Source: Escherichia phage BP32
DNA: 64,000 nucleotides
Sequence record: OR906198.1
Direction: 5' to 3' (one strand)
Shown here: positions 304 to 3,300 of the stretch, one piece after another
Numbering within the stretch: position 1 is the first letter of the stretch
Layout: the number at the start of each line of letters is the position of its first letter
Notes under the pieces: generated by a model
What the model saw: only the letters and a program-made list of their open reading frames with translations
What the model was told of the DNA's origin: nothing
Databases searched by the model: none
Translations under genes and position numbers: made by a program

Positions 304-3300
304 TTATTTTAACAATGATTTAACTAATGCTTTAAGTTCTTCAATTTCTGATTTAAGTTCCGCAATTTCTGCAGTATGCTCATTGATTGCAGCTGTATTT
401 AAACCAATTACACCGTTATAGTTCAAACGAAGTAAAGCTTCGCCATCAGGGTCACCTTCAACTAATTCAGGCAAAATAGCTTGAACTTCTTGAGCTATCA
501 AACCGGCGTTAGGTTCCCATTTCTGATTGCCTTCTTCATCTAGGCCTCGCTTCTGCATATAAGTGTAACCGTTAATTTTAGAAAGCTTCTCAGAAGCATT
601 TTCAAATTTAACAAGGTCTTTTTTAACACGAATATCAGAACGGACATAAACATCGCGGACAAATGTGGAATAGGCATCGCTTTGTTGGATTAAATGACCA
701 AAAGAAATAATAGCTCTTCCTTGTTCAGTCCACAAAGCACCAGTGGTATCCCAAAGACCTTCATGGAGATGGTAAGCGGACGACCATGAAGCAATATGCA
801 TTCCATTTGCAACCATGTTAATACGACCGTCACCGCCATGAACTAACCCAGTGTCATTATCACCAATAACAACACATGCGCCTGTCCATGCAGGGTCACC
901 TCCACCAGCTGATATTCTTACTCCAGCTTTAACCATGTCAGGAACGTACATGTTTCCATTATGGTGGAATTCGAAGATAGCTTGCGGATCGCTAGCATTT
1001 TCCTGGTTACCAACACGAATAATAGCCTGAGCCCATTGGTTAGTGATACGGCGCATACCAAAATCTACGCCTGATACGTATCCTTCGTTAGTAATGACAG
1101 ATTTCCCTTTGATAATTGGATAATAGCTATCATTACCTACGTAGCCAAAATCCACAAATATCGGTGCTTCTTGTCGCCATTGGTTTGCCCAATCGCCAGC
1201 TTGGTGCGCAATCCAGTATGCTCCATTTATATAAAGACGGTCCCTATTAAAATTAAAAGTAGCAGACCCTTGAGGAGATAAAGTAATTTCTCCGACATCA
1301 TTAATGTTAACACCGCTGTTAGTTTGAAAACTATAAAACGATATAGCATTATCAGCGCCGCCATTGCCTACATACCAGTTATTAACACCACCTTTTTTAC
1401 CTTTAACATAGCCAGCTTCATCTGCTGGATAATCAATAACAACAGCGTCTGAGTTGGTTTTAAGAGTTAAACGGCCTGTCATCGTGTCGCCTTCTTTAGC
1501 CACACGGGAGGCAATAGCATCATGAAGGTTGGTTATATCACCAGCAGAGCTAAATAATTTCCAAATATCAGAGAAGATATTACCATTTCGAGCAATAGTA
1601 GCTTCACCACCACCAACCTGTACGTTATCTGGGAAGTTAACAGTACCGTCCTGATTAAAACGAGACGTATGGCCTTGTGAACCATCTTCTTTCAGATGAT
1701 GAATAACGAATGTACCTGAATTAATTTCAGTACCTAAAGACCAAACGGATTTACCGTTTAGAAACTTCTGTTTAACAATAGGATAATATTTGCTTACAGC
1801 ATCATCATCGATTTCCTGGAAAATAGGAGCCGCTTGAACATATTGAATGTCATAACCGCCGGCACCCGCTCCATGACCAGTAAATTTAATATAACCGTTT
1901 GCTGCGAACGTATTGTAACTTGATTGTAAATCTGGAATAGTAACTTTACCAGTATCTAAAGCCATACTAAACGGGCGAAGTGGACCGATATCGCCATGTT
2001 TACCTTCGCCATAAGCAGTTGGAATAATATGAAGACTGCCTTCTGAACGTCTAAAAATAGCTCCATAATCTGCGTTCCAAATGCGAAGCGCATTCACTGC
2101 TCCAGATGAAATTTCGCCTGTTGTGTGAACTCCTCTATTTCCAGCAGTAACACCGGATGATTCAAATGAACCATTGACGTTCATTTCTACTTCACCAGTA
2201 GTAAGTCTTTGAATATAACTCATCCAGCTAGTTGCATCAGAAATTTCCATGACATTTTTACGATTACCTACACTAGGATTAGTAAACGTATTACCCCATA
2301 CAGAAATTGTCATATTATCAACTGAACTGCTACCAGTTGTGTTACCTCTAAACAACAGCGTAGAAGCATTATTACGACCATCAATATTAACAGAACCACC
2401 AATAACGTCAATATTACCTGGAGTAACTAACAAACCGCCATGAGTATTAATGTTTGTGGTACCCTTACCGCGGAAATAATGATGATAATTACCACCTTGG
2501 TAATATCCTAAAAGAGTCTGACCGTCACCGTATGCGTTATTATCATGGTAAGTAACAACAGTAGCCAAAGCATAGTTTTCAGTCGGAGGAGTAGTTAAAT
2601 CTGTTCCATTAGTAGAATATCCAGCTACAAATTTTCTTAGGCTAGTTGTTTCGCTAGGGCTAAATAAAAATGTTTTCGTTCCATTATTGACGCTGAAATA
2701 ATATCCATCCTGATGCCATTTAAATCCGGTATCATTATCGCCAAGAGAAATTGAAGCAGTCCCTAATTCAGAGTATCCTTTATTGCCACCAGGAGTACCA
2801 ACAGAAATAGAATGGCCTGCTTTCAATCCACCGGACCAGGTAAACGACCAAAGATAAGTGTCTAAGCCATCTCCAGTATACCAAGTTATTCCATCATTAT
2901 CTTTAACTTCATGGAATACATCAGCGCCTACAGCATTGCGCATAACACGGAGATGATTAATAGCAGTAGTGCTTTCAGACAATGGAACGTTGTCTGCCAT
3001 AGAATAAATGTCATAATCGCTCGTAGATTTATTATTAGTAATAACTCTATTTGTCAAAATCTGAGGAGTTGACATAGATTTCCATGCTGATACTTCAGGT
3101 GAAGTAAATAGGCCACTGCCTGAAAATGCATAGGTGCTTTCATCACCCGCGGCGTAGTCTTTAACGCGGATATTAACTACTTGCGTAGTTAATCCATCAT
3201 TAGCCGGTGCATAAATGATTCCACGTTCACGATCAGCTGAATCATGAAAACGAACATGTGCTGTACCTGAACTTTTTGTAATAAGTTCTCCGCCTTCGGT

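Follow-up and report, generated by a model that had tools for sequence, protein, structure and literature searches.

A Peptidase_S74 intramolecular chaperone domain at the gp37 C-terminus and its predicted T2-type maturation in Escherichia phage BP32

Described fibre tips and the locus in the window

[quoted passage not shown] Drexler, Riede & Henning reported in 1986 that T2 gp37 is processed proteolytically (as cited in PMC3157838), and a later review lists T2, T6 and many further T-evens as phages in which gp37 is cleaved at its C-terminus and then receives gp38, an adhesin of ~260 amino acids, as a cap (PMC3157838, Trojet et al. 2011). The last 113 residues of S16 gp37 are autocleaved at DLNVS^SDRRIKK, uncovering the surface on which gp38 docks (PMC7917993), and autoproteolytic removal is described for the intramolecular chaperones (IMCs) of both S16 and T5 (PMC7289586). 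A related mechanism operates in MyRF, a eukaryotic membrane-bound transcription factor rather than a virion protein, whose ICA domain performs a Ser-Lys self-cleavage activated by trimerisation, the stalk having no part in catalysis (PMC8326128); its S587 and K592 are the equivalents of endoNF S911 and K916, both indispensable for self-cleavage (PMC8326128). In T4, unlike in the phage studied here, gp37 itself binds the receptor, through a terminal Collar/Phage_fiber needle tip and without an S74 domain, and gp38 is an unrelated chaperone acting in trans (the gp38/gp57A chaperones).

The window, that is, the whole stretch of 64,000 nucleotides of Escherichia phage BP32 (OR906198.1) analysed in this work, carries long tail fibre genes at its left end. 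Genes 34 to 37 were taken from the list of open reading frames:

5467..9336, minus strand: fibre gene 34
4343..5458, minus strand: fibre gene 35
3624..4280, minus strand: fibre gene 36
304..3615, minus strand: gene 37, long tail fibre distal subunit, 1103 amino acids plus the stop codon at 304..306
1..272, minus strand: gene 38, by sequence a T2-type adhesin, first 90 codons (ATG at 272..270, read down to 3), continuing past the left edge of the window

In DNA sequence, the 36-37-38 region shows 99.7% identity with its counterpart in Escherichia phage GEP001 across the 3.7 kb common to both; with RB69 the figure is 91.8%. The open reading frame at 304..3615, which contains the C-terminal gp37 peptide quoted in a preliminary description of this DNA, corresponds to the ‘long tail fiber protein distal subunit’ of the GEP001 annotation, and its RB69 counterpart is annotated as gene 37, long tail fibre distal subunit. 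Scans of the whole 64-kb window (1..64000) retrieved neither tRNA genes nor Rfam families at the gathering threshold.

The locus resembles that of T2 and T6 in its gene order, 36-37-38-t, and in having an adhesin gp38 after gp37, cleavage and capping being for our phage predictions by homology. The sequence subtype of the IMC probably differs from the T2/T6 type: among the T-even fibres recovered by tblastn, some carry IMCs only ~33% identical to the one studied here. With T4 it has in common the locus and the N-terminal ~700 residues of gp37: BLASTP aligns both proteins with 33% identity over residues 1-~703, the first 60 amino acids being nearly identical, and detects no similarity to T4 gp37 beyond residue ~703 and no significant match to the last 138 amino acids. 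Pfam assigns Collar, Phage_fiber and Gp34_trimer to T4 gp37 but no S74 domain, whereas gp37 of our phage has an S74 tail and contains neither Collar nor Phage_fiber, and so lacks the mark of a T4-type needle tip. The earlier statement that T4 gp37 ends differently was therefore correct, and the Pfam and BLASTP comparison with T4 rules out both a T4-type gp37 tip and a T4-type gp38 chaperone.

The shaft of gp37 also contains a short internal repeat, with residues ~585-617 (1765..1863, minus strand) matching residues ~806-838 (1102..1200, minus strand) at 42% identity (pairwise E = 2e-5). On T4 gp37, the two copies fall on one and the same segment, ~686-725, a pattern that suggests a duplicated shaft module.

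The C-terminal domain of gp37

Four independent lines of evidence, namely Pfam, two PDB searches (one by sequence, one by profile) and the predicted fold, confirm that the tail of gp37 is a Peptidase_S74, or IMC, domain, with a resemblance far beyond chance. The domain and its terminal helix are placed as follows:

307..639, minus strand: Peptidase_S74 / IMC domain, S993-K1103, 111 amino acids, 12.3 kDa (PF13884, PDB, profile and Foldseek matches)
310..420, minus strand: long C-terminal alpha-helix, gp37 residues ~1066-1102 (AlphaFold helix 101-137, pLDDT ~88-95)

The domain occupies the extreme C-terminus, residues 993-1103 of the 1103-residue protein, from the S993 codon (637..639) to the K1103 codon (307..309). 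The preliminary description had located it properly but had given it ~105 residues, at 304..625; position 625 falls within the codon of V997, and that interval is 14 nt short at its upstream edge, so the location stands and the extent has to be corrected to the 111 residues listed above. Measured against the curated gathering cut-off of 22 bits, PF13884 (Peptidase_S74) scores 48.5 bits (E = 1e-12) on the whole of gp37 and 53.6 bits (E = 2.7e-14) on its last 138 amino acids, and the match covers gp37 residues 993-1052 and profile positions 1-57 of 58. The comparison with the PF13884/S74 profile that had been suggested earlier thus lies clearly above threshold and, together with the catalytic dyad and the IMC fold, bears out the initial idea that the gp37 tail resembles autocleaving chaperone domains.

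The PDB searches lead to the same family. At the sequence level, S16 gp37 (6f45_A) aligns end to end with the last 158 amino acids of gp37 (E = 1.3e-38), the weaker matches being the MyRF ICA domain and one tail fibre. A word-indexed search for IMC homologues yielded 19 proteins, 15 of which were used to build a shallow alignment and profile; when searched against the PDB, this 15-sequence profile retrieved S16 gp37 (6f45_A, E = 4.1e-29), the MyRF ICA domain (7dc3, E = 4.4e-13), a tail fibre (8jov, E = 8.6e-10), the GA-1 neck-appendage chaperone (3gud, E = 2.8e-4) and, marginally, a tailspike (6eu4, E = 0.053).

We modelled the last 138 amino acids of gp37 as a monomer with AlphaFold2, obtaining a mean pLDDT of 77.5 and, from residue 41 onward, means of 77-95 over 10-residue blocks; the low confidence over the first 25 residues of the fragment is probably due to the shallow homologue alignment. 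The model contains strands at residues 52-60, 66-73, 87-89 and 97-99, followed by a 37-residue helix at 101-137, with which the chaperone presumably forms a trimeric coiled coil. The MyRF counterpart of this helix, a triple coiled coil at the C-terminus, is what drives that protein to trimerise (PMC8326128). Foldseek found matches above noise in the PDB (probability at least 0.96) only with 7dc3, 3gw6 and 3gud, all of them IMC structures, and the best one was the MyRF ICA domain (7dc3, E = 1e-6, TM ~0.6). The TM-scores to solved IMCs, 0.5-0.6, are only moderate, and the model shows a single chain, whereas the domain functions in trimeric form. EndoNF and GA-1 share with the gp37 tail the Pfam family, the Ser-Lys dyad and the fold, although their identity with it in structural alignments amounts to only 11-18%.

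A coiled coil can attract spurious similarities, and the C-terminal helix does give a weak match to DivIC (E = 0.043) typical of coiled-coil noise, so that the S74 resemblance might in principle be compositional or due to chance. However, PF13884 hits the non-helical part of the domain (residues 993-1052) at more than 25 bits above its cut-off, and the independent sequence, profile and fold searches converge on IMC domains. The Pfam, PDB sequence, profile and Foldseek results refute such an artefact, and we regard its probability as practically nil.

Catalytic dyad, predicted cleavage site and gp38

The domain opens with the motif S993-D-I-R-V-K998, in which Ser and Lys are spaced S-x4-K, as is typical of the family. 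The predicted active site and the region preceding it correspond to the following positions:

637..642, minus strand: predicted scissile bond R992-S993, with S993 as the nucleophile (alignment to S16, GA-1 and MyRF)
622..624, minus strand: K998, predicted general base of the Ser-Lys dyad (S-x4-K spacing; alignment to S16 SDRRIK, GA-1 SDERHK and MyRF ADLRAK)
640..759, minus strand: predicted mature gp37 distal tip, residues ~953-992, ending in DVYVR (aligned with S16 gp37 55-~95, just upstream of the cleavage site)

In the alignments, the position of S993 is taken in S16 by the second Ser of the site DLNVS^SDRRIKK, in GA-1 by the first residue of the chaperone chain after its release (3gud_A, SDERHK...) and in MyRF by A587 of the construct crystallised as S587A (ADLRAK), whose K592 lies opposite K998; of 12 aligned sequences covering this stretch, divergent homologues among them, 11 keep the SD.R.K motif. 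Because S993 thus sits on known catalytic or cleavage positions and the motif is conserved, we predict by analogy that gp37 is cut at DVYVR^SDIRVKK, between R992 and S993. The calculated masses would then be 119.3 kDa for the precursor, 107.0 kDa for the mature chain and 12.3 kDa for the chaperone. The P1 residue is Arg in our phage versus Ser in S16, but known sites vary at this position (it is Pro in MyRF), and a DVY(I/V)R^SD site, also with Arg at P1, has been predicted in the Yersinia fPS phages (PMC7917993). A conserved DVY(I/V)R strand and a role in gp38 docking have been described for the S16 gp37 tip (PMC7917993), and by analogy residues ~953-992 of gp37 are presumed to become the gp38 docking surface after cleavage.

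In one metagenomic IMC homologue of the alignment, P0009, the nucleophile Ser is replaced by Pro (IRPDRRVK); judging from this substitution, it may be a naturally non-cleaving chaperone. If such variants exist, the S74-like domain of our phage might likewise be a chaperone that has lost cleavage and is retained in the mature fibre, either as the tip itself or with gp38 bound elsewhere. We consider this very unlikely, since both dyad residues are intact and correctly spaced, autocleavage at the corresponding position is reported for the nearest homologue of solved structure (PMC7917993), and the attachment domain of gp38, which needs an exposed tip, is conserved.

That attachment domain is encoded immediately 3' of gene 37. 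The 90-residue gp38 fragment present in the window matches, over its residues 1-90, residues 1-92 of the S16 gp38 adhesin (6f45_D, E = 2.2e-19), including the conserved tryptophans W7, W20 and W35, whose S16 equivalents insert into pockets on the gp37 tip (PMC7917993); it also matches the gp38 of PP01 (9v85_A, E = 9.5e-29). The gp38 N-terminus is accordingly of the adhesin type, as had been proposed. GEP001 gp38, which is identical to the window fragment over its 90 residues, extends to 258 amino acids with long glycine runs; at full length it scores 240.5 bits with PF05268 (GP38) and 76.6 bits with PF21721 (Gp38_N), and it matches the solved adhesins over its whole length (9v85_A, E = 4.5e-81; 6f45_D, E = 6.7e-52), with differences mainly in the loops. 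From sequence, then, the gene 3' of gp37 is a T2-type gp38 adhesin gene whose product has an N-terminal attachment domain and, as judged on the GEP001 orthologue, would have a glycine-rich receptor-binding domain with a polyglycine-II sandwich and hypervariable loops. PDB entry 6f45 comprises three gp37 chains and one gp38 chain, in agreement with the description of the gp38 adhesin as monomeric (PMC12032242).

The RB69 record AY303349 annotates gp38 as ‘distal long tail fiber assembly catalyst’, the T4 function, a label that was probably carried over from T4. Taken at face value, it would make gp38 a T4-style assembly chaperone absent from the virion. That possibility is extremely improbable: T4 gp38 is unrelated and shows only a weak Caudo_TAP match, whereas the GEP001 orthologue has the two high-scoring gp38 domains mentioned above (240 bits for the PF05268 adhesin and 76.6 bits for PF21721), gp38 matches crystal structures of virion-bound adhesins, and the T4 RefSeq note itself calls the gp38 of the T2 subfamily an unrelated adhesin.

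The identity of the receptor is a different matter. GEP001, a phage obtained on E. coli ATCC 35150, has a gp38 (L001:1996-2772, a region beyond the left edge of the window) that is nearly identical to that of PP01, an OmpC binder (9V85), over residues 37-120; both proteins have a common framework and diverge in hypervariable loop segments. Because the GEP001 loops diverge from those of PP01 gp38, reading the receptor from gp38 by homology is ruled out.

Genes 37 and 38 are separated by a short structured element:

283..300, minus strand: intergenic hairpin of 18 nt, GC-rich, with a UUCG tetraloop (GAGGGGC-UUCG-GCCCCUU), read from the sequence

It follows the stop codon of gene 37 and precedes GGAGG (278..282), the ribosome-binding site of gene 38; its local RNA fold has an energy of -17.8 kcal/mol (z = -2.3). 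Elements that stabilise mRNA or act as attenuators are common between T-even genes, and this hairpin may be one of them.

Proposed maturation and its place among known fibres

The identity of the domain, its conserved dyad, its fold and the adhesin-type gene next to it make it highly probable that gp37 is produced as a precursor whose IMC is autocleaved at R992-S993 and that gp38 caps the resulting tip as the receptor binder, as in T2-type fibres; cleavage, its position and capping are drawn by analogy with T2 and S16. In this pathway, gp37 would be synthesised as a 119-kDa precursor, the last 111 residues of which (S993-K1103) form the Peptidase_S74-family IMC. A beta ‘donut’ and the C-terminal coiled coil would join three IMC domains, and the resulting assembly would nucleate the fibre trimer, which would fold starting at its C-terminus. 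After correct folding of this trimer, S993, activated by K998, would attack the R992-S993 peptide bond, releasing the 12-kDa chaperone and leaving a mature 107-kDa gp37 chain that ends in ...DVYVR. The exposed gp37 tip would then bind one gp38, and this adhesin would recognise the outer-membrane receptor. The prediction, made in the preliminary description, of a fibre that loses its C-terminus and carries gp38 as its receptor-binding tip is thus supported by homology with S16 (PMC7917993) and with T2 and T6 (PMC3157838).

The S16 gp37-gp38 tip (6F45) has the same architecture, with a distal tip, an SD-R-x-K motif, an IMC of ~111-113 residues with a C-terminal helix and, downstream, the gp38 adhesin gene. 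It differs from our phage in its P1 residue (Ser in DLNVS^S versus Arg in DVYVR^S) and in the hypervariable loops of gp38, as judged on GEP001, and only the last ~150 residues of the 1103-amino acid gp37 have a counterpart in the S16 construct. The difference from endoNF and GA-1 is one of purpose: their chaperone folds a protein that is itself the receptor binder or the enzyme, whereas in our phage the removal of the IMC would expose the docking site for a separate adhesin. The ~290 residues of gp37 that extend from the end of the T4 homology (~aa 703) to the predicted cleavage site are without T4 counterpart. We see only a slim chance that they confer a second receptor specificity alongside gp38, an idea prompted by the reported dependence of RB69-type phages on OmpF, FhuA and the LPS core, or that the released 12-kDa trimer has a function after cleavage.

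The combination of a self-cleaving gp37 tail and a T2-type gp38 is real but already known, indeed textbook knowledge for T2-like phages, since it was described for T2 in 1986, in the 2011 review on T2 and T6 and in the S16 structure and later IMC papers, and it recurs across sequenced phages. In a tblastn search, 1230 phage records contained relatives of the 111-amino acid IMC, and 178 of these reached at least 95% identity; S16 appears at 56% identity and T5-like phages at ~43%. The value of the finding is therefore that of an annotation guide, and it opens no new question. It corrects annotation inherited from T4, such as the ‘gp38 assembly catalyst’ of RB69. Work on PP01/T2 chimeras has shown that the gp38 N-terminus must match the gp37 tip when gp38 is swapped (PMC12892980). 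Re-targeting of this phage would accordingly involve swapping gp38 or its hypervariable loops while keeping the gp38 N-terminal domain matched to the gp37 tip.
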